A DNA stretch of 64,000 bases from Myxococcales bacterium (GCA_020633315.1 JACKDV010000004.1:448071-512070); one strand, 5' to 3'; counted from the first letter of the stretch, positions 3,500-56,399 are shown. Notes: generated by a model not told the origin, from the sequence alone. Program-made: numbers and translations.

Positions 3500-3541
3500 G
3501 ATCGGAGGATTTCATTGGCCGAGCACGGGTGCAACGACTGG

Positions 3542-7237: not shown

Positions 7238-7449
7238 CGTCACCAACGGTAGCCAGCCCGCGCGGGAAATTCGATCGCACGCGGGGCGCCCGGCCTCGGA
7301 GGTCGACGAGCGAGGCCGCCGTTCGTCACCAACGATTTCGATCTTTCCTCCAATCCATTGATATTGCTCGGCTATCGACGACCCTTTCAAGACCGCCGTG
7401 ACGCCCCCCGCCCCTGGCCGGTCGATCCACGCGAAAGGCCAGCGAGCCC

Positions 7450-8475: not shown

Positions 8476-8538
8476 CCACCCTCGCGGCGCCGCGCGGACA
8501 TCCCCGTGGCGCCGCGATATGCTCGCCTCGCTTCGTCG

Positions 8539-11364: not shown

Positions 11365-11395
11365 GCGCTCCGATGCCGGGCTGCCCCAGCGAGGC

Positions 11396-11923
11396 TCAAG
11401 CCTCGGCGTCGGCCATCCACTCCGGCATCACGCCATCGAGCCACGGCCGCTGCTTCTTGCCCACCACCTCCACCGCCACCTCGTCCCCGCGGCGGCGAAA
11501 CACCGCGTAGGGGGTGTACGCCTCGAGGAAGTCCATCTCCTGGTGGCAGTCCTCCTCGCAGAACGCGGCGAACAGGCTGATCGCCTCGCCGTTGTCGTCC
11601 CATTCCATGATGTAGCCGGGCACGCCCTCGCTGGGCTCGTCGGGGCGGCGCCCGGGGGTGTTGACCTCATCGGGCTCGTCCCAGCCGCAGGCCCGCGCCG
11701 CGTCGAGGTCGGGCTCGTCGAGCACGCTGAACACCACGGTCCCGTGCACGGCATCGTCGGCCTCGTCGCACCAGTACTGGGCGACCAGCAGCATGGCGCT
11801 GCGCAGCTCGGGCGCGCGGGCGAGGCCCCGGCGCACGTAGGGCAGCACGAGCTCCCGTAGGTAGCGCTCGCGGCCGGCCGCGGCCTGCTCGGGGCTCATG
11901 GATCGCTGGATCTCGTCGCTCAT
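11396..11923 (-). CDS. Hypothetical protein, paralog A (176 aa, unknown family)
   Basis: Internal ATG (MSDEIQRSMSPEQ...). It shares extended similarity with the protein at 12588..13112 (RYLRELVLPYVRR.LAR.P.LRSAMLLVAQYW.DEADDAVH..V.FSVLDEPDL.AARA..W). The start overlaps the stop of the upstream TIM-barrel gene (ATGA). Confidence 0.7.
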   Translation of the reverse strand: MSDEIQRSMSPEQAAAGRERYLRELVLPYVRRGLARAPELRSAMLLVAQYWCDEADDAVHGTVVFSVLDEPDLDAARACGWDEPDEVNTPGRRPDEPSEGVPGYIMEWDDNGEAISLFAAFCEEDCHQEMDFLEAYTPYAVFRRRGDEVAVEVVGKKQRPWLDGVMPEWMADAEA

Positions 11924-12594
11924 GGGGTCTGCCTCAGGATGCCGAGCTGCTCGCGTCGCTGCGCCGCGTCGAGGCGATGCAGGTAGCTCTCGAGGATGGT
12001 ACGCGTTCCCGCGCGCAGGCGCTCGCGGGCCCAGCCCAGGCCAAAGGTACCGGGGGCAATCGGTCGGTGGGTGTCGTGGCGCCCCGCGTTGGCCGAGACG
12101 TGCACCTCGGCGATGCGATCGTGCTCCCGCAGCCTCCGCCAGGTGGGCTCTCCGACCACGCCCTGCCGGAGCTGGATGTACAGGTGCGAGACGTCGACGG
12201 CCAGCGAGAGCCCGGCCTCCATGGCCAGCTCGAGCTCGTCGCCGCGGCCCAGGCAGTAGCCGGGGTGCATGGTCTCGAACACGGTGGCCGGCCGCGCCCG
12301 CGCGGTGTCGATCCAGGTGGCCGCCGCCGGGGCGTGGCGCTTGGGCGGGTGCACCGAGTCGGAGGCCACGCACAGCGAGCCGTCGTCGGCCCACACCCGG
12401 GTCCGGTAGGCCCGCGGCGTGAACCCGTGGTGCGTGCAGGTGACCACGCCCCGCGCGGTCAGCCAGCCCTCGAAATCGGGGGTGGGCACGTTGCCGGGGG
12501 TGAGCTGCAGACCGTCGGGCCCCAGCGCCAGCAATTCCTCGGCCGCGGCCTGCATGGGACGCCCCTGCAGGCAGCTCAGCGCCAGCATCAACAT
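11920..12594 (-). CDS. Xylose-isomerase-like TIM-barrel protein (sugar phosphate isomerase/epimerase family), short form
   Basis: Motifs AVDVSHLYIQ and IAEVHVSANAGRHDTHRPI. Start is the internal ATG at 12592-12594, 1 nt after the stop of paralog B. Confidence 0.65.
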   Translation of the reverse strand: MLMLALSCLQGRPMQAAAEELLALGPDGLQLTPGNVPTPDFEGWLTARGVVTCTHHGFTPRAYRTRVWADDGSLCVASDSVHPPKRHAPAAATWIDTARARPATVFETMHPGYCLGRGDELELAMEAGLSLAVDVSHLYIQLRQGVVGEPTWRRLREHDRIAEVHVSANAGRHDTHRPIAPGTFGLGWARERLRAGTRTILESYLHRLDAAQRREQLGILRQTP

Positions 12595-13112
12595 CCGGCC
12601 TCCCCCTGCGGCATCACCCCGTCGAGCCAGGGACGCTTCATCGTGCCCACCACCTCGATGGCAATGCTGCCGTCGATGCAGCGCAGCAGCGCGTAGGGCG
12701 AGTAGGCGTCCAGGTAGCCCATGTCCTGGTGGCAGCCCTCGTCGCAGAAGGCCGCGAACAACGAGATCGCCTCGCCGTTCTCGTTCCAACCGAAGAGACC
12801 CTCATCGTCGTCGAGGTCGTCGCTGAGCACCGAGGAGTGACGCCCGGGGGTGTTGACCTCGTCCCGCTCCCAGTCCGCCGCGCGGGCGGCCTCGAGATCG
12901 GGCTCGTCGAGCACGCTGAACAGCACCTCGCGGTGGACCGCGTCGTCGGCCTCGTCGTTCCAGTACTGCGCCACCAGCAGCATCGCGCTGCGCAGGTCGG
13001 GATGCCGGGCGAGCACGCGGCGCACGTAGGGCAGCACCAGCTCTCGCAGGTAGCGCTGGCGCCCCGCCTCGGCCTGCTCGGGGGTCAGCTTGGTCTGGAC
13101 CGCGTCGCCCAC
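12588..13112 (-). CDS. Hypothetical protein, paralog B (about 175 aa)
   Basis: Paralogous to 11396..11923. The start is ambiguous: a GTG around 13112 (VGDAVQTKLTPEQ) aligns with the paralog's N-terminus, while the ATG at 13283 adds 57 non-conserved residues. Confidence 0.6.
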   Translation of the reverse strand: MGDAVQTKLTPEQAEAGRQRYLRELVLPYVRRVLARHPDLRSAMLLVAQYWNDEADDAVHREVLFSVLDEPDLEAARAADWERDEVNTPGRHSSVLSDDLDDDEGLFGWNENGEAISLFAAFCDEGCHQDMGYLDAYSPYALLRCIDGSIAIEVVGTMKRPWLDGVMPQGEAGC

Positions 13113-13267
13113 GGAGAATCTTGCCGCAATCCTTATACCCGAGGGGCGCTCCTCGGCGTTGGGGCCGTTGGGATGGTTTGGCGCACACGAGGGAACCTTC
13201 TGGGCGCCGACGCGTATGTACGGTCCGAGGGTGGGGGACGTGGGGTGCCCCCATGCGGAGGTGTGGG

Positions 13268-15283
13268 ATGGTCCGAGGCACATTTCTACTCCTGGGGGCG
13301 CTCGTGCTCGCGTCGCCGTCGTCCAGCGCGGCTTCCGAGCCCGAGCCCGCGGTGGCGAGCACCGGGCGGATCGCCGGGGTGATCCACGACGGCGCGGGCA
13401 AGCCGGTGGCCGGGGCCACGGTGACCCTGCTGTGTAGCTGCCTGACCAAGGCGACCTCCACCAAGACCAAGGCCGACGGCACCTACGTCTTCGAGGGCCT
13501 GCCGCCGGGGGTGTACTCGGTGCGCGTGCGCAAGGGCGGGCGCGACGTGGTGCAGCACCTCACCCTCGGTGAGGGCGAGCGGGTGAGCACCACCATCGCC
13601 CTGGCCTCGCCGCCCAAGGAGGAGCCCGCGACCAGCAAGCCCGCCAAGAAGTCCAAGGGACGGGTGGCAGCCAAGACCGTCGATCCCATGGGGCTGCTCG
13701 ATCCGAGCGCCTCGACCAGCCGCTCGACCTCGCGGGCCGCCCGCAAGCGCGACGCGGCCGGGGTCGCGGGCGGAGTACCCGGGGGAGTGGTCGGCGGCAC
13801 GCTGGGAGGCCGCAGCGCCGGCGTGGCCGCGCTGCGCGTCCCGGTGGAGCCCGCCAACACCGAGGGCTACGCCCACATCCGCGAGAACGACTTCGTCGCC
13901 GTCTCCGATGCCCCGCTGTCGACCTTCTCGGCCGACGTCGACACCGCCTCGTACAGCAACGTGCGGCGCTTCCTCTCGCAGGGCCAGCGCCCGCCGATCG
14001 ATGCGGTGCGGGTGGAGGAGCTCGTCAACTACTTCGAGTACGACTACGTCACCCCGCCCGACGACCGGCCGGTGACCGTCAACTGGGAGGTCGGCCCCTG
14101 CCCGTGGAACGAGGACCACCAGCTCGTTCGCATCGGGCTGCAGACCAAGCCGATCGCCGACGCCGAGGTGCCCCCGCGCAACCTGGTGTTCCTCGTCGAC
14201 GTGTCGGGCTCGATGCAGTCGCCCGACAAGCTGCCCCTGCTGGTGCGCTCGATGGGCCTGCTGGTCGACCAGCTCCGCGAGCAGGACATGGTGAGCCTGG
14301 TGGTGTACGCCGGCGCCTCCGGGCTGGTGCTGCCGCCCACCTCGGGCGCGTACCGGGACCGCATCCGCGACGCGCTGGCCGAGCTGACCCCGGGCGGCTC
14401 GACCAACGGCGCGGCCGGGATCCGCCTGGCCTACCAGCAGGCCCGCAACGCCTTCATCGAGGGCGGGATCAACCGGGTGATCCTCGCCACCGACGGCGAC
14501 TTCAACGTGGGCACCACCAGCGACGGCGACCTGGTGCGGCTCATCGAGCAGGAGCGCGAGTCGGGGGTGTTCCTGTCGGTGCTGGGCTTCGGCCAGGGCA
14601 ACCTACAGGACGCCAAGATGGAGCAGCTCGCCGACGAGGGCAACGGCAACTACGCGTACATCGACGACCTGCACGAGGGCCGCAAGGTGCTGGTGCAGCA
14701 GGCGGGCGCCACCCTGGTCACCGTGGCCAAGGACGTCAAGCTCCAGGTGGAATTCAACCCGGCCCTGGTCGCGGAGTATCGGCAGGTGGGCTACGAGAAC
14801 CGCCGGCTGCGCGACGAGGACTTCAACGACGACACCAAGGACGCGGGCGAGATGGGGGCGGGGCACTCGGTGACCGTGCTCTACGAGATCGTCCCCGCCA
14901 GCGGAGGTGAGGGGGGCGGCACGGCGCCGCGCCGCGTGGATGCGCTCAAGTACCAGGGTGAGCGCACCACCACCGCCGCCGCGGCCAGCGACGAGCTGAT
15001 GACGGTGAAGGTCCGCTTCAAGCGTCCGCAGGGCAGCAAGAGCCGGCTGATGTCGGTGGCCGTGCGCGGCACGCCCTCGACCTTGGCGAAGACCTCGGAC
15101 GACTTCCGCTTCGCCGCCGCGGTGGCCGAGCTGGGGATGATCCTGCGCGACTCGGAGCACAAGGGCAGCGCCACCCTCGAGTCGGTCGCGATGCTGGCCC
15201 GCAAGGCCCAGGGCAAGGACCCGCACGGTCACCGCAAGGGCCTGCTGGAGCTGGTCGAGCAGGCGCGCGCCGTGGGGTACTGA
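13268..15283 (+). CDS. Secreted vWA-domain protein (YfbK/BatA-like: carboxypeptidase-regulatory-like domain + vWA + DUF3520-type C-terminus)
   Basis: Signal peptide MVRGTFLLLGALVLASPSSSAASEP. The ATG at 13268 is preceded by GGAGG. The MIDAS motif is VFLVDVSGSM. Confidence 0.85.
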   Translation: MVRGTFLLLGALVLASPSSSAASEPEPAVASTGRIAGVIHDGAGKPVAGATVTLLCSCLTKATSTKTKADGTYVFEGLPPGVYSVRVRKGGRDVVQHLTLGEGERVSTTIALASPPKEEPATSKPAKKSKGRVAAKTVDPMGLLDPSASTSRSTSRAARKRDAAGVAGGVPGGVVGGTLGGRSAGVAALRVPVEPANTEGYAHIRENDFVAVSDAPLSTFSADVDTASYSNVRRFLSQGQRPPIDAVRVEELVNYFEYDYVTPPDDRPVTVNWEVGPCPWNEDHQLVRIGLQTKPIADAEVPPRNLVFLVDVSGSMQSPDKLPLLVRSMGLLVDQLREQDMVSLVVYAGASGLVLPPTSGAYRDRIRDALAELTPGGSTNGAAGIRLAYQQARNAFIEGGINRVILATDGDFNVGTTSDGDLVRLIEQERESGVFLSVLGFGQGNLQDAKMEQLADEGNGNYAYIDDLHEGRKVLVQQAGATLVTVAKDVKLQVEFNPALVAEYRQVGYENRRLRDEDFNDDTKDAGEMGAGHSVTVLYEIVPASGGEGGGTAPRRVDALKYQGERTTTAAAASDELMTVKVRFKRPQGSKSRLMSVAVRGTPSTLAKTSDDFRFAAAVAELGMILRDSEHKGSATLESVAMLARKAQGKDPHGHRKGLLELVEQARAVGY

Positions 15284-15363
15284 AGCAACGGGCCGGAGAA
15301 CGACGAAGGGCCGGGCCGACCTGCGGCCCGGCCTCACGAAGGCCGGAGCGAGGAGCGAGGCGC

Positions 15364-17454
15364 TCAGCTCGGCGGGGGCAGCCCCTTGCCGCCCAGCTTC
15401 TCCGACGAGCGGCACAGCGGCGGGAAGCGGGTGCGAGTGCAGGCATCCTCGTAGAACGCCCGGGCGATGCCCTGGTCGACGGCCTCGAGCTGCTTGCCCA
15501 GCGCGGTGCAGGACGAGACGTCCTTGTCGTCGCAGGCGCGGCGCAGGATCTGCTCGGCCTTGGCGGGATCCTTCTTCAGCCCCTTGGCGCCCTTGGCATG
15601 GATCGCGGACAGCTCCACGCAGGTGAAGCGGCGGTGATCCGAGCAGCCGCGCTCCAGCACGGCCACGGCGTCCTTGGCCGTGCCGCCGCCCTTGCCCGCC
15701 TGGTAGAGCCCCGCCAGGGTGGTGCAGGCCTGCGACGACAGGGAGATGAAGCGGGCCCCGGGCTCGGGCGTCGGGCAGCCGCGCTCCAGCAGCGCGACCC
15801 CGGTCCGGAGGTCGCGCTTGATCGGGGCCTTGCCCTCCACGAGCTCCTTGCCGGCGCGACCGCAGGCGCTGGTGTTGCCCAGGTCGCAGGCGCGCCGATC
15901 GTGCTCCAGCGCCCGCTCCGGTCGCTTGCCCGCCGCGCTGCGGCCCATGCGGTGGATCATCGCCAGGTCCACGCACTCGTTGGCCTCGCCGCGCTCGCAG
16001 CCGAGCTCGAGCATCCGCAGGCCTCGCGGCTCGTCGAGGTGGAGGTCGACGAGGTTGATGGCCAGCGAGCGGCACGAGGAGGAGCGCCCCATGCCGCAGG
16101 CACGCTCGAGCAGGGCGACCCCGCGCTCGGGAGCGGCCGTGAGCTCGTCGCGACCCCGCAGCAGCGTGTAGCCCAGGGTGTCACAGGCGGCCGAGTCTCC
16201 GCGATCGCAGCCGCGCTGCAGCACCTCGGCGTAGGGCTTCCATTGCTTGGCGCGGCTGAGCTCGAACGACGCGGCGGTGCACGCCTTGGCGGGCCCGTCG
16301 TCGGCCTTGCAGGCGGCGAGGAAGCGCTGCTGGGCCAGCTCGGGCTGGCGCTCGCGCCCCGAGCCGCCCGAGCGGAGCATCACGCCCAGGTTGTAGCAGC
16401 TCGGCCCGTTGCCGCGCTCGCACTGCTGGGTGCACTGCTCGAAGTCCATGGGGGCGCACTGGAACGAGGCCACCTGCTGGGGCGGCGTGCACTTGCCCCC
16501 CGCCCGCACGAAGCCCGACGGGCACTTGGTCTCGAGCGCCTCCACCTCGGGCGGCGCGGACTCGCCCGAGCCCTCGTCGTCGCCCTGGGCCACCGCCGGG
16601 CGCTCCTCCGCGATGGGGTACAGCTCGATGGTGATCGCGGCGCGGCACTGCTCGGGCGGCGCGGAGTCGCCGGGCTTGGCGTTGTTGCAGTCCTCGGGCT
16701 TGCCGTCGCGGTTGGCGACGCGGCGGTTGGCCTCGCTGCCCGCGGCCGCCCCGGCGCCGAAGATCTCGGCCGCGGCGCGGGCCTTGCCCTGGGTGCCCTT
16801 CTCCACCGCGAAGGCGCCCACGATCGCCGAGCGCACGAAGTGGGTGGCGCCCTCGCAGCCGGGGCCCTTCAGATCCTCGCGCGCGACCATGTCGTCGCGG
16901 ATTGACTTGCGGCCCACCATCACCAGGCCGATGTCGATGGCGGCCCCCGAGGTGACCTCGCCCTCGAGCTGGACGGCGCTGGCGGGGAGGTTGGCCCGGA
17001 GCTGATCGATGGTGTCGATCTGCACCTGGTCCTCCTTCATCGACACTCCCACGAAGGTGTAGGGATCGACGGCGCTGCCCACCGTGCACCCCCGCAGCAC
17101 CTCGAGCCCGTCGCAGTCGTAGCGGACCACGGCGATGCCCTCGGACATCACCGCCTCGAGGTGGCTGCGGTCGGCCCCGCGCAGGTCGACCACGTAGGGC
17201 TCGGCGACGGTGCTGGTGTTGGTGCAGGTGATGGTCTGCCCCAGCGCATCGGTGGCGCTGGGATCGGGGGGCGCGAGCTTGCTGCCCAGGTTGTTGGTGC
17301 CGCAGCCGGTGCCGCCCCACAGACCCAGGCCCAGCACGAGGCCGAGGCCGGCGAGACGACGGAGCCCGAGCGAGCCGGGCCCGCGGGCGGGCGCTCGCGC
17401 CGAGGCACGGGGAGGAGCGGGGCTGGTCCAGGGGGGAGCCGCGGAGGTTGACAT
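15364..17454 (-). CDS. Cysteine-rich Sel1-like repeat (Hcp-like) lipoprotein
   Basis: Lipoprotein signal ...LVLGLGLWGGTGCGT. It has multiple repeats of the RGCD.GD..AC..LG...L.G.G / ERAC..G...C..L type, as in Sel1/Hcp proteins. 696 aa. Confidence 0.75.
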   Translation of the reverse strand: MSTSAAPPWTSPAPPRASARAPARGPGSLGLRRLAGLGLVLGLGLWGGTGCGTNNLGSKLAPPDPSATDALGQTITCTNTSTVAEPYVVDLRGADRSHLEAVMSEGIAVVRYDCDGLEVLRGCTVGSAVDPYTFVGVSMKEDQVQIDTIDQLRANLPASAVQLEGEVTSGAAIDIGLVMVGRKSIRDDMVAREDLKGPGCEGATHFVRSAIVGAFAVEKGTQGKARAAAEIFGAGAAAGSEANRRVANRDGKPEDCNNAKPGDSAPPEQCRAAITIELYPIAEERPAVAQGDDEGSGESAPPEVEALETKCPSGFVRAGGKCTPPQQVASFQCAPMDFEQCTQQCERGNGPSCYNLGVMLRSGGSGRERQPELAQQRFLAACKADDGPAKACTAASFELSRAKQWKPYAEVLQRGCDRGDSAACDTLGYTLLRGRDELTAAPERGVALLERACGMGRSSSCRSLAINLVDLHLDEPRGLRMLELGCERGEANECVDLAMIHRMGRSAAGKRPERALEHDRRACDLGNTSACGRAGKELVEGKAPIKRDLRTGVALLERGCPTPEPGARFISLSSQACTTLAGLYQAGKGGGTAKDAVAVLERGCSDHRRFTCVELSAIHAKGAKGLKKDPAKAEQILRRACDDKDVSSCTALGKQLEAVDQGIARAFYEDACTRTRFPPLCRSSEKLGGKGLPPPS

Positions 17455-43472: not shown

Positions 43473-45761
43473 CTACGACCCCGGCCGCGGGTGCTCGGCG
43501 AGGAAGCGCGCCAGCACCTCCGGCACCGGGCCGGGCTTCGCGATCGCCTCGAGCAGGTCGAGCTGGTACCGCAGCGTGTCCAGCTCGCCCCGCCCCACGC
43601 CCCACCAGCGCATGCGACCCCAGCCGTAGGACAAGAGCTGGTTGTCGTCGGTGACGGCCTCCTCGAGCTGGGCGTAGCGCTCGAGCGCGTCGGGGCCGTA
43701 GCGCAGGCGCGCCGCCACCTCGGCCGGCGCGAGGTCTCGCGGCACGTCGCGCTCCAGGCCGGGGAACAGCGGGCCCTCGCCCTTGCGCCCCACGAGGATC
43801 CCGGTGCCCTCGGGATCGATCCACAGGAAGCCCTGCGGAAAGTGCTGGAGGAAGGCCCCCACGATCGCGGCGGACTCCTCGGGAGACACCAGGTGGAAGG
43901 GCAGCCACTGGGCGATCACGCCGTCGGCCGCGAGGCGCTCGTATGCGAGGGCGTAGAAGTCCGCGGAGTAGAGCGCGTTGGAGCCAGCAAAGGTGGGCGG
44001 CATGGGCTCGAGGGTGATCACGTCGTACGCGGTGTCGGTGCGCCGCAGCCACGCCCGCCCGTCCATCACCCGCGGGGTGACGCGGGGGTCGTCGAGCACG
44101 CCCTCGTTCTCGGGGAAGTGCGGGGCCATCTGCAGCACGGTGCCGCTGACGTCCACCACGTCGAGGTGGGCGGGGCCCTCCTTGCGCACCGCGTTCGCGG
44201 TCTGGCCGGTGCCGAAGCAGATCACCAGGGCCTGCCGGGGATCGGGGTGCATCAGCATGGGCAGGTGCCCCATCCACGGCATGTAGTGCGAGCCCGAAGA
44301 GGTGGTCGACGCGTAGAAGCCGTCGATCACCAGGTGCCGCCCGCCGTCGGCGTGCTCGATGACCGAGACGGTGGCATCGGGGCCCTCCTTCGAGGCGATC
44401 ACCACGTGCGCCTCGTCGAGGTTGGTCTGCACCCGCAGCGTGCCCACCTCGCTGGCCCCGGCCACCGCCACCACCACGCCGAGCCCGGCGACCACCAGGT
44501 GACGGACGCGACGGGAGCGGTCGAGCAGCAGCGCCGCGCCGGCGAGCACCGCCGCCGCCACCCAGGCCGTGCGGGCGAAGCCGATGCCGGGCAGCAGCAC
44601 CCAGGCGGCGAGCAGCGAGCCGAGGGTGGCCCCGAGGGTGTTGAGGGCGTACAGGAGCCCCACGCCCCGCGAGTCGCGGGTGGCCTCGAGCACCCAGGGC
44701 AGGCCCACCCCGATGAGCGCCATCGAGGGGCCGAGCACGGCGAGCGCGAGCCCCAGCCGTCGCGCGACCGCATGGGTGAAGGTGCTCGGCTCGGAGGCGC
44801 CGACCAGCACGAGGTCGATGCGCTCGATCACCGGCGTGGTCACCAGCACCACGAAGGCCGCGGCGACGAGGATGGTGCCGAGCGAGGGGCGAGCGCGTCG
44901 GGCCAGCCAGGGAGCCACCGCGCCGCCGAGGGCCAGGGGCAGCAGCACGCCGAAGAGCACCAGCGCGAAGCTGTCGGTGGTGGCCTGGTAGGCGGCGCGT
45001 AGCGATCGGAACCACGCAACCTCGAGCGCGAAGGTGGCGAAGCCCGTGCAGAGCACCACCGTCCGCGCCACGCGGGGTGGCAGGGGAGCGATCGGCGAGC
45101 GATCGGCGGGCTCGGCCTCGCGGCGGTCGGGCTCGGCCTCGGCCTCGGCGCGCGCCCGCACCCGTGCCCGCGCCCGCGCCCGCGAGGCCAGCCCGAGCAG
45201 GGCCGCCCCGATGAGCCCGTCGATCAGGCTGGCGATCGAGACCGTGAGGCTCACGCCGACGGCGGGGATGAAGACGAACGAGGCCGCGATGATCCCCACC
45301 GCCGCCCCGGCCACGTTGGCCGCGTACAGGCGCCCGATGGAGAGCGCGCGCTGCCTCGCCACGCCCGCGAGCACCGGGATCGTGGCGCCCATCAGCGCGG
45401 CGGGCACGGTCAGCAGCAGCAGCATGCCGGCGAGCTGGACCAGGGGAGCCAGGCCCGGCGAGCTGCGCCACACCGCGGTGTCGAGCTCGGCCAGCGCCGC
45501 GAAGCCGGGCTCGAGGGCCTGGCCGCACAGGGCGACGCCGATCTCCAGCGCGCCCCACAGCGCGAGCAGGCTCGCCGCGGGGTGTCGCGCGAGCCAGCGC
45601 CCGCCGAGCTCGGCTCCCAGCGCCAGGCCGATCGAGAACGCCACCAGGGTGAGCGCCGCCCCCTGCGACGAGATCCCGAGCGAGAGCGCCGTGTAGTGCA
45701 GCCACAGGAGCTCCCACGCCAGCCCGGCCACGCCACCGAGGGCCGCGATCGCGTAGAGCAT
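43473..45761 (-). CDS. Polytopic membrane protein fused to spermidine-synthase-like (class I SAM MTase-fold) domain
   Basis: About 8 N-terminal TM helices, then a PABS-like core (LVICFGTGQTA, DVITLEP). Paralog of 53937..56399. Confidence 0.75.
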   Translation of the reverse strand: MLYAIAALGGVAGLAWELLWLHYTALSLGISSQGAALTLVAFSIGLALGAELGGRWLARHPAASLLALWGALEIGVALCGQALEPGFAALAELDTAVWRSSPGLAPLVQLAGMLLLLTVPAALMGATIPVLAGVARQRALSIGRLYAANVAGAAVGIIAASFVFIPAVGVSLTVSIASLIDGLIGAALLGLASRARARARVRARAEAEAEPDRREAEPADRSPIAPLPPRVARTVVLCTGFATFALEVAWFRSLRAAYQATTDSFALVLFGVLLPLALGGAVAPWLARRARPSLGTILVAAAFVVLVTTPVIERIDLVLVGASEPSTFTHAVARRLGLALAVLGPSMALIGVGLPWVLEATRDSRGVGLLYALNTLGATLGSLLAAWVLLPGIGFARTAWVAAAVLAGAALLLDRSRRVRHLVVAGLGVVVAVAGASEVGTLRVQTNLDEAHVVIASKEGPDATVSVIEHADGGRHLVIDGFYASTTSSGSHYMPWMGHLPMLMHPDPRQALVICFGTGQTANAVRKEGPAHLDVVDVSGTVLQMAPHFPENEGVLDDPRVTPRVMDGRAWLRRTDTAYDVITLEPMPPTFAGSNALYSADFYALAYERLAADGVIAQWLPFHLVSPEESAAIVGAFLQHFPQGFLWIDPEGTGILVGRKGEGPLFPGLERDVPRDLAPAEVAARLRYGPDALERYAQLEEAVTDDNQLLSYGWGRMRWWGVGRGELDTLRYQLDLLEAIAKPGPVPEVLARFLAEHPRPGS

Positions 45762-47021: not shown

Positions 47022-48473
47022 GTGCTCCACCGATCGCTCCCGCCCCTGGCGGCGCTCGCCCTCGCCGCTGCCCTGCCCGCCAAGGCCACCGCCGCCCCCG
47101 TCGAGCTGGTCGAGCTCGGCGAGGACGGCGAGGTCGCCGAGGAGGAGGCTCCCGATCCCGCGCTGCAGCGCCCGTGGATCCGCCGCTACACGCCGCGCCG
47201 CGGCATGTGGGAGACGGGCTTCTTCGGCGGGGTGTGGCTGCCCTCCGACGTCATCGAGCTGCACGACCGCAACCTGCCGCCCATCCGCTATGACCTCGGG
47301 GCCGAGCTCGGCCTGCGCCTGGGCTACTACCCGCTGCGCCACCTGGGGCTCGAGGGCGAGCTGGCCATGATCCCCACGCGGGTGGAGACCGAGCAGCGGG
47401 CGTTCGTCTCCACCGCCCGCGCCGGCGCCGTGGTGCAGCTCGGCCTGTTCCGCCTGGTGCCCTTCGCGGTGATCGGCGGCGGCGTGATCGCGGTGCGCAG
47501 CGAGCCCGACGCGGCCGGCCGCAACGGCGACGAGATGCTCTACGTGGGCGGCGGCCTCAAGTACTTCGTCAACCAGCACATCGTGCTGCGCCTGGAGGGG
47601 CGCGACATGATGTCGCCCAAGGAGGGCCGCACCCCCGCCGCGCCCGCCCACAGCGGCGAGGTGCTGCTGGGCTTCTCGCTCGCCTTCGGCCCCCGCGGCG
47701 CCGACGAGCCCCCGCCGCCGCCCGACAGCGACGGCGACGGCTTCCTCGATCCCGACGACGCCTGCGTCGACGAGGCCGGCATCGCCCCCGACGGCTGCCC
47801 GGCTCGCGACGCGGACGGCGACGGCTTCCTCGACGCCGAGGATGCCTGCGCCGACGAGGCCGGCACGGCTCCCGACGGCTGCCCCGTCCCCGACAGCGAC
47901 GGCGACGGCTTCCTCGATCCCGACGACGCCTGCATCGACGAGGCGGGCGAGGAGCCCGACGGCTGCCCCATCCGCGACGAGGACGGCGACGGCCTGCTCG
48001 CGCCGCAGGACCAGTGCCCCCAGGAGCCCGAGACGGTCAACGGCTTCGACGACGACGACGGCTGCCCCGATGAGCTGCCCGAGGAGGTCAAGAAGTACAC
48101 CGGGGTGATCGAGGGCATCTTCTTCGACACCGGCCGGTCCTCCATCCGCGACGAGTCCTTCCCCACCCTCGACGCGGCGGTGAAGGTGCTCGCCGACTAC
48201 CCCTCGCTGCGGGTGGAGATCAGCGGGCACACCGACGACCGCGGCAAGCGGGACAAGAACCTGGGGCTGTCGCAGGATCGCGCCGACGCGGTCAAGCAGT
48301 ACATGGTCGACAAGGGCATCGACGCGGGGCGCATCACCACCCGCGGGGCCGGTCCCGACGAGCCGATCGGCGACAACAAGACCAAGGCGGGCCGACAGCA
48401 GAACCGACGCATCGAGTTCAAGCTGATCACCGAGCCGGCGAAGGCCACCTTCGTCGCGCCCGAGCCCTCGTGA
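47022..48473 (+). CDS. OmpA-family protein: N-terminal beta-barrel, thrombospondin type-3 (Ca-binding) repeats, C-terminal OmpA peptidoglycan-binding domain
   Basis: GTG start. It has four DSDGDGFLDPDDAC.DEAG..PDGCP repeats. The OmpA-like motif is ISGHTDDRG...NLGLSQDRADAVKQYM. Confidence 0.9.
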   Translation: MLHRSLPPLAALALAAALPAKATAAPVELVELGEDGEVAEEEAPDPALQRPWIRRYTPRRGMWETGFFGGVWLPSDVIELHDRNLPPIRYDLGAELGLRLGYYPLRHLGLEGELAMIPTRVETEQRAFVSTARAGAVVQLGLFRLVPFAVIGGGVIAVRSEPDAAGRNGDEMLYVGGGLKYFVNQHIVLRLEGRDMMSPKEGRTPAAPAHSGEVLLGFSLAFGPRGADEPPPPPDSDGDGFLDPDDACVDEAGIAPDGCPARDADGDGFLDAEDACADEAGTAPDGCPVPDSDGDGFLDPDDACIDEAGEEPDGCPIRDEDGDGLLAPQDQCPQEPETVNGFDDDDGCPDELPEEVKKYTGVIEGIFFDTGRSSIRDESFPTLDAAVKVLADYPSLRVEISGHTDDRGKRDKNLGLSQDRADAVKQYMVDKGIDAGRITTRGAGPDEPIGDNKTKAGRQQNRRIEFKLITEPAKATFVAPEPS

Positions 48474-48477
48474 TCCG

Positions 48478-48498
48478 CGGTGTGTTGAAACACCGTCG
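48478..48498 (+). terminator. Hairpin CGGTGT-GTTGAA-ACACCG 5 nt after the OmpA-family gene stop
   Basis: 6-bp perfect stem with no U-tract. Confidence 0.25.
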
Positions 48499-48656
48499 CA
48501 GCACTGCAACGCCGACGCGCTCGACCTCGGATCCACGTATCGTGCCAGCTCCTGCCCCGGGGGTGCGACCGGGCGCATGAGGCCTCGACGCGCTACAGTG
48601 TTGGCATCGAAGACGCCAAGGACAATCCAGAGCAACCACATGGCTGGCGGGCCATC

Positions 48657-49004
48657 GTGGGCAGCGATCCCCGCGAGGTGGGCAAGGAGCCCGACTACCG
48701 CTTCAGCCTCGCCAACGAGCGGACCTTCCTCGCCTGGATCCGCACCTCGCTCGCGCTGCTGGCCGGCGGCCTGGCCGTGGCCAAGTTCCTCCCCCTGTTC
48801 GGAGGGAGCCTCGCGCTGTCGCTGCTGCTGATGGCCCTGGGGCTGATCCTCGCCGCCACCTCGTATCGCCGGTGGTCCCGCACCGAGATCGCCCTGCGCA
48901 CGGGCGCCCCGCTGCCCACCTCGCGCCAGCCCGTGCTCCTCGCCCTCGGCGTCACGCTGGTGGGCCTGGCCACCGCCGTGCTCATCGTGTTCGGGGCGAA
49001 GTGA
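48657..49004 (+). CDS. DUF202 (YidH-like) small membrane protein
   Basis: NERTFLAWIRTSLALLAGGLAV signature and two TM helices. GTG start. Confidence 0.7.
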   Translation: MGSDPREVGKEPDYRFSLANERTFLAWIRTSLALLAGGLAVAKFLPLFGGSLALSLLLMALGLILAATSYRRWSRTEIALRTGAPLPTSRQPVLLALGVTLVGLATAVLIVFGAK

Positions 49005-49336
49005 GGCACACCCAGCCCAACAAGGTCTTCGACTCGGGCCTCCAGCAGGAGCGCACCGCCCTCGCCTGGGACCGCACCGGCCTGTCGATGATGGTCGCGG
49101 GCGCGGTGCTGCTGCGCTCGCCCTCGAGCACCTTCATGTTCCTGCCGATCATCGTGGGCGGCGTGGTGGTGGTGACCGGCGCGTGGCTGACCCTCGTGGC
49201 CCACCTGCGCTACAGCAAGCTGCACCGCGTGCTCCGTGCGGAGCAGAGCATCCTCAACCCACGCCTCATCCGCTGGGTCGGCTTCACCACGATGGCCCTG
49301 GCGCTCGCGTCGATCCTCGACGTGCTCGCGATGTGA
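49001..49336 (+). CDS. DUF202 (YidG/YidH-like) small membrane protein, second of a pair
   Basis: QERTALAWDRTGLSMMVAGAVLL signature. The GTG start overlaps the preceding TGA (GTGA). Confidence 0.65.
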   Translation: MRHTQPNKVFDSGLQQERTALAWDRTGLSMMVAGAVLLRSPSSTFMFLPIIVGGVVVVTGAWLTLVAHLRYSKLHRVLRAEQSILNPRLIRWVGFTTMALALASILDVLAM

Positions 49337-49428
49337 ATCCGAAGGCGCGAGTCCTCGACTGCCGGTGGTGAGGCGCTCACGCGAGCGTCGACGAAGCCCG
49401 GGCGGGCGGGGCCAGGGCGAGCGGCGTC

Positions 49429-50862
49429 TCACCCCCTCGTCGCGCCGCCGCGGCCGAGCGCGCCCAGGTCGATGCGATCGAGCACCTCCTTGGTCACCGG
49501 TCGCTTGGCGTCGCGGAACACCAGCGCCCGCAGCAGCGCCCGCACGGGCTCCGAGCGCAGCCCGGCCAGCGCGACGCGAGCCCGGGCCTCGTCATCGAAG
49601 CCGATGGAGTAGCAGGTGTCGTCGAGCAGCGTGGGTCGGCCCTGCGCATCGGGACCCACCAGGGTGAAGGCCGGCTGCTTGGCGAGGCCCGAGATCGCGA
49701 CCTTCCACGGCGCAAAGGAGTACTCGCCCAGGCCGAACACGCAAAAGCGCGGTCGATCACGATAGATGGTGCTGCGCCGGGCGTCGAGGGCCTCCGCGTG
49801 CCCACACAGGTAGCGCCAGGCCCGAGGCGCACGCTCGGCCAGCCGCGAGGTGTCCTCGCCCAGGCGGCGCTGCGGCAGCAGCAGCCACCGCCGCACGCGG
49901 GGCAGGTCGTGGCCGCGCAGGTCCGAGGTCTTGAGCAGCGGGAAGATCACCGCGTCCTCCACCTCCACCCGCTCGCCCAGGCCGTTGACGAGGCCCTCGC
50001 CGTCGCGCCGCAGCTCCATCACGCGGGCGCAGTCGTGCTTGATCCCCGAGCGCCACGGCGGGTCGGCCACGCCGAGCACGGGGCGCGCCCGATCGTAGGC
50101 CGCGGCGTCGGCCACCAGCGTGCCGCCCCGGACGGCGATCTCGCCCTCGGCCCGCTCCGCGTCGAGCTCGGCGTGCACCGAGCAGGCGATCGCGGCGGCC
50201 CGCCGCGTGCCGAAGCAGAACAGGCCGGCGTCCACCGCCGCCCCGAAGCTGGCGCGCGCGTCGATGCGGTGCAGCGAGGCGTCGTGCAGCGCGAGCTCCC
50301 GGCGATGGGCATGCTCGAGCACCCGCCGCGCCACCGCGGTCTTGACCAGCATCGCCACCGCGAGCTCGCGCCCCTGCCCCAGCTCGAGCCAGCGCCGCAG
50401 CATCCAGGTGGAGACGTCGAAGTTGGACTTGCCGGTGAGCGCGGCCAGGCCGGGCAGCCCATCGTCGTTGGTGCGGGCCGGCCGATTGTCGATGCCCAGC
50501 ACGGTGAGCGCCGCGTTGGTCACCCACGGCGGATTGCCCAGCACCAGCACCGGGGGCTCCCAGCCGGCGAGGCGCTCGGCCCAGGGCTCGGTGAAGGCAT
50601 CGCCCACGCGCACCTCGGCGGCGGAGCCCGCTCGTCGCAGCCGCTCGCGAGCGGTCGTCGCCCGGCCGGCGTCGATCTCCAGGCCGAAGCCGCGCGCCCG
50701 CGGGAAGGCCTCGGCCGCCGCGAGCAAGAAGGCTCCCTCGCCGCAGGTGGGCTCGACCACGGTGGCCGGGGCGTGCCCCCGCCGGGCCAGCCATGCGCAC
50801 ACGCGTCGGGCCAGCGCGAGCGGGGTCTGGAAGTCGCCGTAGGCGGCCTTGGCCGTGCTCAC
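49429..50862 (-). CDS. Gamma-class N6-adenine DNA methyltransferase (M.TaqI/Eco57I-like), apparently orphan
   Basis: Motif X YGDFQTPLALARRV, motif I VVEPTCGEGAFLLAA, motif IV LGNPPWV. The GTG start is preceded by GGGAGG 7 nt upstream. Upstream of it in the 873-aa track ORF is junk. Confidence 0.8.
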   Translation of the reverse strand: MSTAKAAYGDFQTPLALARRVCAWLARRGHAPATVVEPTCGEGAFLLAAAEAFPRARGFGLEIDAGRATTARERLRRAGSAAEVRVGDAFTEPWAERLAGWEPPVLVLGNPPWVTNAALTVLGIDNRPARTNDDGLPGLAALTGKSNFDVSTWMLRRWLELGQGRELAVAMLVKTAVARRVLEHAHRRELALHDASLHRIDARASFGAAVDAGLFCFGTRRAAAIACSVHAELDAERAEGEIAVRGGTLVADAAAYDRARPVLGVADPPWRSGIKHDCARVMELRRDGEGLVNGLGERVEVEDAVIFPLLKTSDLRGHDLPRVRRWLLLPQRRLGEDTSRLAERAPRAWRYLCGHAEALDARRSTIYRDRPRFCVFGLGEYSFAPWKVAISGLAKQPAFTLVGPDAQGRPTLLDDTCYSIGFDDEARARVALAGLRSEPVRALLRALVFRDAKRPVTKEVLDRIDLGALGRGGATRG

Positions 50863-51557
50863 GGCGAGGCCTCCCGACCGGCGAGGGTGATCTCGCCCTC
50901 GGCGTCGATCCACAGCTCGAAGGCGAGGGGCTGCTCCCCCCTGCGCCCTCGCTCGCGGCGAAGGTGGTGCACCCCGTGGAGGCGCGCCCGGTACTCGCCC
51001 TCCCCGATCTGCTCGTCGCTCACGCAGAGGTCGGCGCCGAGCTGCCAGTAGCTGCGCACCACGCCCGCGCGCAGCAGCAGCTCGAGCACGCCGCGATCGC
51101 CCAGGGCCTCGCGGGCGTGCGCGGTGACCCGGCCGATCGACTCCACCGCGCCCGGCGCGACCACGGTGGCATCCACCGCCCGCAGCGGCGCAAAGGCAGC
51201 GCCGTCGAGCACCACCACGTCGAGCGCCTTGCTGTACCAGGCGATCGGGCGGCCCTCGATGCCCAGCCCCGCGGTCGCGCTCACCGGTCGCTGCTCGGCC
51301 GGATCGATCTCGGCGGCGGGGAAGCGCGGCTGGAGGTCGCTCCCGCCCCCGCCGAGCTCGCGCAGCTCGGTCGAGGGCGAGTCCTCGTGATCGAGGGTGT
51401 AGGTGGCCCGGCACTCCCCCTCGCCGAAGCGGTGGGGATCGCCCAGCCCGCGGGCACAGCCGAGCGCGAGCAGGGCCAGCGCCACCAGCCAGGCTCCGGC
51501 CCCCTGGGACCGGAACCGGCTCAGCAGTTGGCGTTCTCCTCGCAGGTCGCGACCAAC
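50859..51557 (-). CDS. Hypothetical lipoprotein (start approximate)
   Basis: ...AGAWLVALALLALGCARG lipobox. The stop overlaps the MTase GTG (GTGA). Start codon choice is unclear (GTG/CTG region 51527-51593). Confidence 0.5.
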   Translation of the reverse strand, partial: VGRDLRGERQLLSRFRSQGAGAWLVALALLALGCARGLGDPHRFGEGECRATYTLDHEDSPSTELRELGGGGSDLQPRFPAAEIDPAEQRPVSATAGLGIEGRPIAWYSKALDVVVLDGAAFAPLRAVDATVVAPGAVESIGRVTAHAREALGDRGVLELLLRAGVVRSYWQLGADLCVSDEQIGEGEYRARLHGVHHLRRERGRRGEQPLAFELWIDAEGEITLAGREASP

Positions 51558-52201
51558 GAAGCGTTGTCGACTTGGTCGAAGATGCAGTCCCATGAGTCGC
51601 AGGAGGCGAACGAGACCGCACCGTAGACCCTCGTGGCCTCGTAGAAGCACAGGTCGAGGGAGTCGTCGTTCGTCCGCCACATCGTACCGTCGGCCGCCAC
51701 GTGATAGCGCGAGCTGGTGAAGATCGAGATGTTCCGGGTCTCGTGCCCGAAGCCGAAGGCCACGCCGTCCGCGTCGGCCTCGAGGATGCAGGCCACCACG
51801 GCCTCGTTGGCCGAGGCCAGCTCGGCGCACTGCTCGGCCAGACCGTCGTCCGTGCTCTCCTCGCCACCGCCGGAGCTCCCGCCGTCGGAGCCACCGCCGC
51901 CCGTGCCGTCGGAGCCACCGCCCGTGCCCCCACCGCCGCCCGTGTCCCCGCCCACGTCCGTGCCGCCCTCGTCCGTGGCGCCGTCGCTACCGGCCTCACC
52001 CCCTCCCACGCTCTCGCACTGCAGGTCGTGGTTCTCCACGTAGGTTCCACAGTCCCGCTCGGAGGCCGAAGGATCGATCGCGGAGCACTCGGGGGCCGAG
52101 CCCGCGTCCTCGTTGCCCTCCTTGGTCGAGCCGCATGCGAGCAGCAGCCCCAGCGACAGAACGATCATCGAGCGAGCGCTCGTGCTCATGGTCATGGTCA
52201 T
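51521..52201 (-). CDS. Hypothetical lipoprotein with Gly/Asp/Thr-rich linker and Cys-containing C-terminal domain
   Basis: MTMTMSTSARSMIVLSLGLLLACGS lipobox. The C-terminal domain has ~8 Cys (DCGTYVENHDLQCE...CDSWDCIFDQVDNASLVATCEENANC). Confidence 0.65.
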   Translation of the reverse strand: MTMTMSTSARSMIVLSLGLLLACGSTKEGNEDAGSAPECSAIDPSASERDCGTYVENHDLQCESVGGGEAGSDGATDEGGTDVGGDTGGGGGTGGGSDGTGGGGSDGGSSGGGEESTDDGLAEQCAELASANEAVVACILEADADGVAFGFGHETRNISIFTSSRYHVAADGTMWRTNDDSLDLCFYEATRVYGAVSFASCDSWDCIFDQVDNASLVATCEENANC

Positions 52202-52377
52202 GGGTACGTCAATCCAGTCTGGGGCGGAGCCCCGCAAGTCTTGGGCGAACGCTGACACGACGACCCGAGGCCGTCGAGCCATGCACCCCCTACCAGACGC
52301 GACCGCGGGCCAATCGATCGCTCGGGACCCGACGATTCCTCGGCGCACGGGCAGCGCAGCTTGCGCTTCGCTCGGCT

Positions 52378-53838
<1,461 letters not shown>

Positions 53839-53936
53839 ACGGTCGCCCCGTCGCGGTCGTCGCGCGGGGCTCGATTCGCCAGAGCGCGGGCCGTTGCCGT
53901 ATCCTCCGCTGCGACCGCTCCCGCTGCCGCCGCCCC

Positions 53937-56399
53937 ATGGATCACCGCAAGACCTACGCCGGCGTCTTCCTCGTGGCGCTCTCGACCCTGGTGCTCGAGA
54001 TCCTGCTCACCCGGATCACCTCGGTCGTCGCCTGGTACCACCTGGCGTTCTTCGTGATCTCGCTGGCCATGCTGGGCATGACGGCAGGCGCGGTGATCGT
54101 GTTCGTGCGCCCCGAGTCGTTCCGCGACGATCTCGTGCCCCGCCGCGCCACCGAGGCCTGCCTGGCCCTGGCCGCCACCGCGCCCGTGGCCATCGCGGCC
54201 GCGCTGGCCATCCCCCTGCGCCCCATCACCTCCACCGAGGGCTTCGTGGCCATGCTCGGCTACGGCGGGGCGCTGGCCGTGCCCTTCACCCTCAGCGGGA
54301 TCGTGCTCACCCTGGTGCTCACGCGGGCCGGGCTGCCGCCGGGGCGGGTGTACGGCGTGGATCTGGTGGGCGCGGCGGCGGGCTGCGGCGTGGTCATCCC
54401 CCTGCTCGACTGGCTCGATGCTCCCAGCGCGGTGCTGGTGGCCTCGGCCCTGGCCGCCCTGGCCGCCCTGGCCTTCGCCCTCGCCCGCGACGACGCCCGC
54501 GCGCGCCCCCACGCCCGCTTCGCCGGCTTCCTGAGCCTGGTGCTGGTGGTGCTCGGCCTGCTCAACGCCACCGCCGACTCGCCGTGGCTGCGACCGCAGC
54601 AGGTCAAGGGCGAGGCCGAGGATCCCTCCGACTTCCTCTACAACGGCTGGAACACCTACTCGCGGGTCACCGTGGACGACACCCTCGTGATGCCGCCCGC
54701 GCTGTGGGCCGGCGGGCGGCTCACCCCGCTGGAGGTGCTGCGCCCCCTGCCGCAGCGCGCGATCAAGATCGACGGAGCCGCCGGCACGGTGATGGTCGAC
54801 TTCGATCGCGACCCCGACGACGGTCAGCCGGCCTCGCTCGCCGCCCACGACTACCTCGAGTGGGACGTGACCTCCTTCGCCCACCGCCTGCGCCCCACGG
54901 GCCCGGCCGCGGTGATCGGCGTGGGCGGAGGCCGCGACGTGCTGGAGGCGGCGCGGGTGGGGCACCAGCCGGTGGTGGGCCTCGAGCTCAACGCGCTCAT
55001 CGTGGGCCTGCACCAGGGCTCGATGCGAGAGTTCAGCGGCATCGCCGACCTGCCCGGCGTGCGCCTGGTCAACGACGAGGCGCGCTCGTTCATGGCCCGC
55101 GACCGCCAGCGCTACGAGGTCATCACCATGTCGCTCATCGACACCTGGGCCTCGACCGGCGCCGGTGCCTATGCGCTCTCGGAGAACGGCCTGTACACGG
55201 TGGAGGGCTGGCAGATCTTCCTGCGCCGCCTCACCCCCACCGGCATCTTCACCGTCTCGCGCTGGTACAAGCCCGACTCGCCCGGCGAGACCGCCCGCAT
55301 GCTGGCCCTCGCCATGGAGACCCTGTGGTCGCTGGGGGTGGAGGAGCCGCGCCGACACATCATGATGCTGCAGAGCATGAGCATCGCCACCATCCTCGTC
55401 ACGCCCACGCCCTTCACGAGCGCCGACGTGATGACGATGCAGAAGGAGGCGGTCGCGCGCGGCTTCAACATGCTGCTGGCCCCCGGGCGCCTGCCCATCA
55501 ACCCCATGCTGCGCGAGCTGGCCCAGGTCCCCGACCGCGCCGGCATGTGGGCCTGGGCCACCAGCCAGTCCCTCGACCTCACCCCGCCCACCGACGCGCG
55601 GCCGTTCTTCTTCAACATGATCAAGCCGGCGACCTGGCTGTCGGAGCCCGAGCAGGTCGACGAGCTCGACTACGCCTTCCTCGGCAACCTCCACGCCACC
55701 CGCACCCTGGTGTGGGCCATCGCCATCAGCGCGATGCTCACCGCGGTGGCCGTGCTGCTGCCCCTGTGGTCGCGACGCCGCGATCTCAACGCCTACGCCG
55801 GCGCCGACGTGATCGCCTCGAGCTCCTACTTCGCGCTCATCGGCCTGGGCTTCATGTTCGTGGAGATCGGCCTGCTGTCGCGCCTCAACGTGTTCCTGGG
55901 CCACCCCACCCTGGCCCTGGCCGTGCTGCTGGGGGGGATCATCTTCTTCACCGGCGTGGGCAGCATGGCGAGCGGGCGGATCCCGCTCCGGCGGCCGTGG
56001 GTCGCCCGGCTGTACCCGCTGCTGCCCGCGGCGCTGGTGCTGGTGGTGGCCGCCCTGCTCGACCCGGTGATGGGGGGCCTGGTGGCCGCGGGCACGGCCG
56101 TGCGCGTGACGGTGGGCCTGGGGCTGGTGGCCCTGCCCGCCCTGGGCCTGGGCCTGTGCTTCCCCCTCGGCCTGCGTCTGGTGGAGGGGCTCGCGGGCTC
56201 CGAGGCGCCCTCGATGGGCCCGTGGATGTGGGGGATCAACGGCGCATGCGGGGTGGTGGCCAGCGGCCTGGCCCTCACCTCGTCGATGGCGTGGGGCATC
56301 GGCACCACCCTGCTCATCGGGGCGGGCTGCTATGCGCTGCTGCCCTTGTGCACGAGCCGGCTGCAGCGCTCGCAGGCGCGGTCGGGCGCGCCTGCGTGA
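53937..56399 (+). CDS. Polytopic membrane protein fused to spermidine-synthase-like domain (paralog of 43473..45761)
   Basis: Internal ATG (MDHRKTYAGVFLVALSTLVLEIL...) and N-terminal TM bundle. The PABS-like core has VIGVGGGRDV and EVITMSLIDTW, followed by a C-terminal TM bundle. Confidence 0.8.
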   Translation: MDHRKTYAGVFLVALSTLVLEILLTRITSVVAWYHLAFFVISLAMLGMTAGAVIVFVRPESFRDDLVPRRATEACLALAATAPVAIAAALAIPLRPITSTEGFVAMLGYGGALAVPFTLSGIVLTLVLTRAGLPPGRVYGVDLVGAAAGCGVVIPLLDWLDAPSAVLVASALAALAALAFALARDDARARPHARFAGFLSLVLVVLGLLNATADSPWLRPQQVKGEAEDPSDFLYNGWNTYSRVTVDDTLVMPPALWAGGRLTPLEVLRPLPQRAIKIDGAAGTVMVDFDRDPDDGQPASLAAHDYLEWDVTSFAHRLRPTGPAAVIGVGGGRDVLEAARVGHQPVVGLELNALIVGLHQGSMREFSGIADLPGVRLVNDEARSFMARDRQRYEVITMSLIDTWASTGAGAYALSENGLYTVEGWQIFLRRLTPTGIFTVSRWYKPDSPGETARMLALAMETLWSLGVEEPRRHIMMLQSMSIATILVTPTPFTSADVMTMQKEAVARGFNMLLAPGRLPINPMLRELAQVPDRAGMWAWATSQSLDLTPPTDARPFFFNMIKPATWLSEPEQVDELDYAFLGNLHATRTLVWAIAISAMLTAVAVLLPLWSRRRDLNAYAGADVIASSSYFALIGLGFMFVEIGLLSRLNVFLGHPTLALAVLLGGIIFFTGVGSMASGRIPLRRPWVARLYPLLPAALVLVVAALLDPVMGGLVAAGTAVRVTVGLGLVALPALGLGLCFPLGLRLVEGLAGSEAPSMGPWMWGINGACGVVASGLALTSSMAWGIGTTLLIGAGCYALLPLCTSRLQRSQARSGAPA

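Follow-up and report, generated by a model that had tools for sequence, protein, structure and literature searches.

NspV-type restriction-modification (RM) systems, such as the PD1667-PD1668 pair of Xylella fastidiosa and the pair carried by plasmid pAhW39, combine a restriction endonuclease (REase, gene R) with a DNA methyltransferase (MTase, gene M). They are the closest described relatives of the gene dealt with here, a MTase gene lying within a stretch of 64,000 nucleotides from a Myxococcales bacterium (GCA_020633315.1, JACKDV010000004.1:448071-512070; the whole stretch, 64 kb long and ~73% GC throughout, is hereafter the window). NspV recognizes TTCGAA (PMC2779907), the Xylella pair, which is homologous to NspV, has been associated with TTCGA(6m)A in single-molecule real-time (SMRT) data (bioRxiv 10.1101/2022.09.01.506293), and the NspV family has been placed under the PD-(D/E)XK superfamily in the classification of Orlowski and Bujnicki (PMC2441816). 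The window MTase is a full-length homologue of the MTases of these systems, 42-55% identical to RM-linked members, and has the same motif order, the same target-recognition domain (TRD) blocks and a start within a few nucleotides of the upstream stop codon. It differs from them in that the adjacent 217-aa endonuclease of the PDLC03454 type that belongs to a complete NspV-type RM system is absent, as is any remnant of it, the upstream gene coding instead for an unrelated lipoprotein, and in that the gene occupies a syntenic chromosomal position across a clade and not a mobile element.

Persistent orphan DNA MTases, among them Dam, CcrM and the clade-conserved solitary MTases known from prokaryotic methylome surveys, offer a second comparison. 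Like these, the window MTase has no cognate endonuclease, keeps one locus throughout a clade of family rank and is under purifying selection. Unlike Dam, an alpha-class enzyme, and CcrM, a beta-class one, it belongs by its motif order to the gamma class and shows no homology to either; it would moreover be of recent RM descent, its RM-linked relatives being still 42-55% identical, and it is missing in some relatives (loci L006 and L094). Type IIL/IIG enzymes of the MmeI type (PDB 5hr4) resemble it in having a gamma MTase domain followed by a TRD, whereas their fused N-terminal endonuclease domain has no counterpart in the window protein. Most probably, the window gene encodes a solitary Type II gamma-class N6-adenine (m6A) MTase of the family labelled NspV, descended from an RM cassette in which R preceded M.

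The methyltransferase and its gene

Three consecutive minus-strand coding frames were resolved inside 49429-52201 by a third-position GC frame plot, the GC content at third codon positions (GC3) being 0.94 for the MTase, 0.89-0.94 for the gene directly upstream (lipoprotein gene 2) and 0.90 for the gene preceding the latter (lipoprotein gene 1). The features of the MTase gene are as follows:

49429..50862, minus strand: gene of the putative orphan Type II gamma-class N6-adenine DNA MTase, 477 aa, GTG start (GC3, PADLOC PDLC03310)
50859..50862, minus strand: GTGA junction, the MTase GTG lying on the TGA of lipoprotein gene 2 (from the sequence)
50870..50875, minus strand: GGGAGG, Shine-Dalgarno-like, within the end of lipoprotein gene 2 and 7 nt upstream of the MTase GTG
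50821..50838, minus strand: motif X, GDFQTP, aa 9-14 (read from the sequence)
50725..50760, minus strand: motif I, S-adenosylmethionine (SAM)-binding loop VVEPTCGEGAFL, aa 35-46 (read from the sequence)
50524..50535, minus strand: motif IV, catalytic NPPW, aa 110-113 (read from the sequence)
49450..50170, minus strand: C-terminal target-recognition half, ~aa 230-470 (from alignment and Foldseek)

The MTase GTG occupies 50862-50860 and the TGA of lipoprotein gene 2 occupies 50861-50859, the two together reading GTGA, which confirms the overlap described in an earlier note on this DNA. The GTG start is supported by the N-termini of homologues, which align there, and by independent gene callers, which also give 477 aa. 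The GGGAGG may serve as the ribosome-binding site of the MTase. An 873-aa open reading frame (ORF) at 49429-52050, present in the ORF list, was rejected as an artefact of the kind usual at 73% GC, in which a frame extends spuriously upstream.

Motifs X, I and IV are strongly conserved. In a 20-sequence family alignment G9, D10, Q12, T13 and P14 are invariant in motif X; E37, C40, G41 and G43 in motif I, whose core EPTCGEGAF corresponds to aa 37-45; and N110, P111, P112 and W113 in motif IV. Of the 120 homologues listed, 118 contain the string GNPPW, among them every listed member of the orphan clade. The target-recognition half contains the family-invariant blocks WRSGIKHDC, LDDTCY and KRPVT. 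The succession of motifs X, I and IV followed by the C-terminal target-recognition half is the gamma order, as the earlier note had read it in the 477-aa protein.

The full length of the protein was matched by the PADLOC model PDLC03310 (MTase_II, derived from REBASE), residues 4-466 aligning with positions 7-472 of the 475 of the profile (E 6e-125, 415.6 bits). This model was needed to place the MTase, since the Pfam, NCBIfam and PDB sequence searches gave sub-threshold matches to generic SAM-dependent MTases only; with Pfam (E <= 0.01) these were Methyltransf_25, Methyltransf_31 and N6_Mtase, all below cut-off. The AlphaFold2 (AF2) model (mean confidence, pLDDT, 87.2) consists of a Rossmann half followed by a second domain. 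Its best PDB match in Foldseek was MmeI 5hr4, over both the MTase domain and the TRD (E 1.4e-12; 544 alignment columns; TM score 0.51 normalized to the query; 13% sequence identity). Taken together, motif order, full-length profile match and structural likeness indicate a gamma-class N6-adenine DNA MTase and not a RNA or protein MTase. Among other PADLOC models, those of Type IIG enzymes gave weak partial matches (aa 296-449), and mad2 matched aa 5-115 only (E 2.9e-13). Membership in BREX (as PglX), DISARM, MADS or Type IIG systems was considered and discarded, there being no strong model match and no partner genes within ~10 kb.

The NspV family and its tandem architecture

A large protein search retrieved more than 3,761 homologues of the MTase, several of them named 'modification methylase NspV' at their source. 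Homologues with 42-55% identity are spread across metagenome-assembled genomes (MAGs) of Chloroflexota, Planctomycetota, Verrucomicrobiota, Gemmatimonadota-like bacteria and Proteobacteria. Plasmid-borne members were found on small Aeromonas plasmids and on plasmids of Nostoc, Klebsiella and lactobacillus; one plasmid homologue is labelled 'NspV homolog', and the Aeromonas plasmid copy is 38% identical to the window MTase. A further member with 37% identity and no REase (L053, 5098-6489) comes from a contig of 7.2 kb that was assigned by binning to a Promethearchaeota (Asgard) MAG, which would be either an inter-domain transfer or a binning artefact.

For 80 distant MTase loci the neighbouring ORFs were clustered; 74 of these loci carried enough upstream sequence. 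On the strand of the MTase gene, and directly preceding it, is a conserved ORF of 217 aa, whose mean column identity across phyla is 71% and in which D66 and D73-x-K75 are invariant. It matches the PADLOC model REase_II PDLC03454 (E 5e-104), and its sequence thus identifies it, by prediction, as a PD-(D/E)XK endonuclease, the canonical partner of the MTase. A search with the REase profile detected it in 57 of the 74 loci, intact in 50 and damaged in 7, and found none in the other 17. Wherever it was detected (57/57), the REase gene is immediately upstream of the MTase gene. In the 49 intact RM loci for which the junction was recorded, R and M overlap by 4 nt (19 loci) or are separated by 1-5 nt (29) or by 12 nt (one); in the annotation of the Aeromonas hydrophila plasmid pAhW39, for instance, R extends from 174 to 836 and M from 833 to 2245. 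Because R-M pairs overlap by 4 nt or sit a few nucleotides apart, a tight junction to the upstream ORF is the native architecture of this MTase family. The earlier note had regarded the coupling of a DNA MTase to lipoprotein genes as odd, an impression that fades once the family is seen to be natively joined to an upstream ORF and the neighbouring DUF202 gene pair is seen to carry the same GTGA junction.

The damaged REase genes illustrate how R is lost. Upstream of the MTase, the REase is split by frameshift into two pieces in L014, L018, L065 and L069, and in L039 it is a 5′-truncated copy. In L029, a Nannocystaceae MAG (5884-5973), and in L073 (3685-3786), C-terminal REase remnants of 30-34 aa abut the MTase. 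One family thus displays a graded decay of the R gene, from intact through frameshifted to a ~30-aa remnant and to nothing. The invariant TRD blocks across the family suggest a single shared specificity, and the window MTase would methylate the adenine of TTCGAA.

The locus in its relatives

Around the MTase gene the window contains the following features:

50859..51593, minus strand: lipoprotein gene 2, 244 aa from ATG 51593 (GC3 frame plot, homologues)
51521..52201, minus strand: lipoprotein gene 1, 226 aa, with an N-terminus ending LLLAC (GC3)
52378..53838, minus strand: Old Yellow Enzyme (OYE)-type NADH:flavin oxidoreductase gene (Pfam Oxidored_FMN, E 1.3e-36)
48657..49336, plus strand: pair of genes for DUF202 (YidH-like) membrane proteins, 48657-49004 and 49001-49336 (Pfam DUF202, E 1.3e-17 and 1e-11)

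The OYE gene is the conserved first member of a cluster whose genes share one strand. Eight loci show the order OYE, lipoprotein 2, MTase, namely the window, L001, L002, L004, L007 and the metagenome contigs L093, L095 and L096, the MTase being 77% identical to that of the window in L001, 69% in L002, 63% in L004 (Paraliomyxa miuraensis, GCA_026337845.1) and 65% in L007. The 4-nt overlap between lipoprotein 2 and MTase was called in L001, L002, L004 and L007. The conservation of this coupling, which the earlier note had left to be checked, was thereby established for eight loci of the clade, a group of marine myxobacteria; about ten loci were inspected directly and some 13 further lipoprotein/MTase pairs were weakly inferred from contigs of identical length, while a metagenome scan with the lipoprotein profile provided four loci. 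Wherever the sequence of a relative reaches far enough upstream, an OYE gene precedes lipoprotein 2 (L094 begins inside lipoprotein 2). The OYE-lipoprotein pair occurs without the MTase in L006 (genome of 11.1 Mb), where a convergent radical-SAM gene follows it, and in L094 the lipoprotein gene, also without MTase, is directly followed by an AAA ATPase gene (655-1947). Lipoprotein 2 therefore goes with the OYE gene and not with the MTase. On the 3′ side of the MTase, L004 carries ScoMcrA_N, TGT-like and DndB genes (9495-15954), and L007 carries an AAA_21/AAA_15 ATPase, small partners and a GmrSD_C protein (10063-15872).

The lipoprotein calls for both upstream genes were made by inspecting the patterns of their N-termini. 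The family of lipoprotein 2 is restricted to the clade, with only 47 homologues as against the more than 3,700 of the MTase family; the window copy is 100% identical to a protein with the locus tag H6712_11200 from a 'Myxococcales bacterium' MAG. In most family members a charged and then hydrophobic leader precedes the lipobox; by the lipobox pattern, 41 of the 47 signal peptides end in L-A-[AG]-C, and most of the others have a similar ...AC. The AF2 model (pLDDT 88.6) had no significant PDB match. Starting from ATG 51593, lipoprotein gene 2 overlaps lipoprotein gene 1 by 73 nt, whereas the GTG at 51485 chosen by the gene callers gives 208 aa, no overlap and nine residues before the lipid-modified Cys. 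The upstream start, and with it the overlap, is likely, because a leader of nine residues would be implausibly short. Of the two overlapping lipoprotein genes reported in the earlier note, then, the lipobox-type N-termini stand for both, and the overlap depends on the start. Lipoprotein 1 has a lipobox-type N-terminus (MSTSARSMIVLSLGLLLAC), followed by a long low-complexity linker rich in Gly, Thr, Asp and Ser and by a C-terminal domain rich in Cys, several of them conserved; it gave no match in Pfam, NCBIfam or PADLOC. A homologue was found in L001 only (3538-4131, 46% identity), the gene being absent from L002, L004 and L007, and it represents a variable insert between OYE and lipoprotein 2. 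The DUF202 pair, which is convergent with the MTase and whose two genes have their own GTGA overlap at 49001-49004, is absent from the syntenic loci L001, L002, L004 and L007. Neither the DUF202 pair nor lipoprotein 1 forms a unit with the MTase. The DNA 3′ of the OYE-lipoprotein core, where the MTase is located, resembles a variable hotspot for defence genes.

No REase was found in the 64-kb window, either by tblastn with 26 REases or by a hmmsearch of the six frames with the REase profile (best full-sequence E 1.5). The same profile left no trace in the relatives L001-L010, and none was found within 8 kb on either side of the MTase in the syntenic relatives. In this respect the earlier note, which had seen an orphan without a defence partner nearby, holds for the window and for every syntenic relative. 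Lipoprotein 2 is unrelated to the REase family (hhalign probability 0.1%), and its C-terminus shows no R remnant, not being extended relative to the copy in L006, where the MTase is missing. TTCGAA occurs once in the window against 2.8 expected and its counts in the relatives are mixed, numbers that have no statistical power.

Neighbour joining of 120 family members united all the lipoprotein-linked MTases in a single clade, which lies inside a broader set of REase-less Myxococcota members that includes the Nannocystaceae lineage L009, Labilithrix (L046, L067) and Polyangium (L058). Elsewhere in the tree, REase-less members are scattered singletons among RM-linked ones. The listed clade members have all kept GNPPW, and almost all have kept five other diagnostic blocks. 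Pairwise dN/dS values for the MTase were 0.32-0.42, probably an overestimate, as dS is compressed by the extreme GC3. Among the syntenic loci, identities were 73-85% for OYE, 63-77% for the MTase and 46-63% for the lipoprotein; MTase identity correlates with that of OYE and of the lipoprotein (Spearman 0.53 and 0.49, from pairs that are not independent). The pattern of identities and the constraint would fit a long vertical retention of a working enzyme.

In the wider group, too, the orphan MTase sits repeatedly tight behind unrelated genes (L009, L046, L067). In L009, from a sister Nannocystaceae lineage, a REase-less MTase (8001-9419, 55% identical) follows by 6 nt a gene at 6975-7994, whose 339-aa product gave a weak match to HATPase_c (GHKL ATPase; E 7e-4). 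In Labilithrix (L046, L067), a conserved ORF of 550-580 aa occupies the position before the MTase.

Within ~10 kb of the MTase, the neighbouring genes code for a DUF4215 protein, a sulfotransferase, a spermine-synthase-like membrane protein, DUF481 and OmpA proteins, the two DUF202 proteins, OYE, a large membrane protein, and PG_binding, VIT/VWA and Ser/Thr kinase proteins. The region is flanked by two genes for very large polytopic membrane proteins: one at 43473-45761 (minus strand), with a C-terminal spermine/spermidine synthase domain (E 2.9e-13), and one at 53751-56399 (plus strand), with no Pfam match. An ORF of ~820 aa without Pfam match, divergent from OYE, is present in L002, L004, L006 and L007, and corresponds in position only to 53751-56399 of the window. 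Consensus scans of 48400-54200 returned neither promoters nor terminators, a scan that is uninformative at 73% GC.

Proposed origin of the solitary gene and rival readings

We propose that, in an ancestor of the Nannocystaceae-like clade, an RM cassette was inserted into the variable DNA just 3′ of the conserved OYE and lipoprotein genes, and that the endonuclease gene would then have been lost; a cell can tolerate losing R, but not losing M alone. In the course of these events the MTase start would have come to overlap the stop codon of the lipoprotein gene, the latter taking the place of R, so that the lipoprotein coupling would be explained by the native tandem architecture of the family together with the loss of R. 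The MTase would be expressed as the last cistron of an envelope/redox cluster by means of its own GGGAGG ribosome-binding site, and would methylate at adenine a site that should be rare in a 73% GC genome. A solitary MTase can protect against a RM complex. Speculatively, the most likely benefit may be that the widespread NspV-type RM systems carried by plasmids meet pre-methylated sites, which neutralize their attack or addiction, and any regulatory effect would be secondary.

Several points weigh against this proposal: (i) no R scar is visible in the clade, the loss of R at this locus being deduced from the phylogenetic nesting, and the data would fit just as well with the capture of an M gene that was solitary from the outset; (ii) activity and TTCGAA specificity derive from the annotation names of homologues 47-52% identical, and the assignment to NspV was made through source labels and not via the characterized M.NspV sequence; (iii) orphan status was read from 64 kb, and an unlinked endonuclease may lie elsewhere in the genome; (iv) dN/dS values of 0.3-0.4 denote moderate constraint only; (v) the MTase is dispensable in some lineages, L006 and L094 being without it at the locus; and (vi) co-transcription of the MTase with the upstream genes is deduced from their spacing.

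The alternative that best survives is a domesticated epigenetic regulator, in which methylation at a few hundred genomic sites would, as with Dam or CcrM, govern gene expression, the cell cycle or the developmental cycle. It would account for a single clade kept at a syntenic locus across a family-level group, within a wider Myxococcota clade that is also REase-less while such cases elsewhere are scattered singletons, and it would agree with purifying selection, intact motifs and a MTase more conserved than the adjacent lipoprotein. We nevertheless consider it unlikely, though tenable: the MTase is absent from the same locus in two relatives (L006, L094) and resides in an apparently variable defence-gene region, Pfam recognizes in it a generic SAM-MTase and a N6_Mtase below cut-off but no homology to known regulatory MTases, and the single TTCGAA in 64 kb says nothing about how sites are placed. 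The more specific form of this idea, according to which a MTase of the NspV family was captured long ago by Polyangia-type myxobacteria, was kept solitary across families and became a lineage-specific epigenetic regulator tied to the OYE-lipoprotein cluster, appears distinctly improbable.

An active RM system whose cognate endonuclease is encoded outside the window could be imagined on the grounds that 64 kb of a ~10-Mb genome were inspected and that TTCGAA is slightly, although not significantly, under-represented. A split of this kind is very unlikely in a family in which every detected REase gene (57/57) is immediately upstream of the MTase; the syntenic relatives are likewise devoid of a REase within 8 kb on either side, and it is rare for RM systems to keep a syntenic position from one genus to another.

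There is even less room for an uncharacterized functional module made up of the MTase and one or both lipoproteins, possibly with the DUF202 pair, as the earlier note had contemplated. The 4-nt overlap between lipoprotein 2 and MTase, conserved in at least eight loci of the clade, speaks for such a module, but tight junctions are native to the MTase family and common locally. The lipoprotein is predicted from its signal peptide and lipobox to be exported, whereas the substrate of the MTase is cytoplasmic DNA. Furthermore, lipoprotein and MTase do not form an obligate module, because the former is present without the latter in L006 and L094, and the MTase family, with more than 3,700 members, is almost everywhere without the lipoprotein and normally paired with a REase. 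Lipoprotein 1 occurs in two lineages only, and the DUF202 genes, which are convergent, lack conservation. The idea of a module thus gave way to a lipoprotein tied to OYE.

Finally, that the protein is a RNA or protein N-methyltransferase with a (N/D)PP(Y/F/W) motif, of the PrmC/HemK or RlmL type, is hardly credible, for the weak NCBIfam matches to PrmC, RlmC and small-molecule MTases (E 1e-5 to 1e-3, 18-24 bits) and the many Foldseek matches to RNA MTases over the Rossmann half, which would favour it, are set against the facts that the former span only aa 17-118 and lie far below cut-offs, that the model matched over the full length, at 415 bits, is one of Type II DNA MTases derived from REBASE, that the C-terminal half is matched in structure by the DNA-recognition domain of MmeI and that family members are paired with a restriction endonuclease, so that the better match to RNA or protein MTases that the earlier note had asked about was looked for and not found.

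For the solitary MTase of RM descent that we favour, the wider context is that decay of RM systems to orphan MTases is common, and the window MTase would be a routine example of it. Our search of the literature for a myxobacterial TTCGAA methylome or orphan MTase returned nothing relevant. Were the regulatory reading true, it would provide a new case of the Dam/CcrM kind in a developmentally complex group. The REase-less MTase lineage persists across several myxobacterial families (Nannocystaceae-like, Labilithrix, Polyangium), and it bears on whether myxobacteria use m6A at rare sites for regulation or for immunity against RM addiction.

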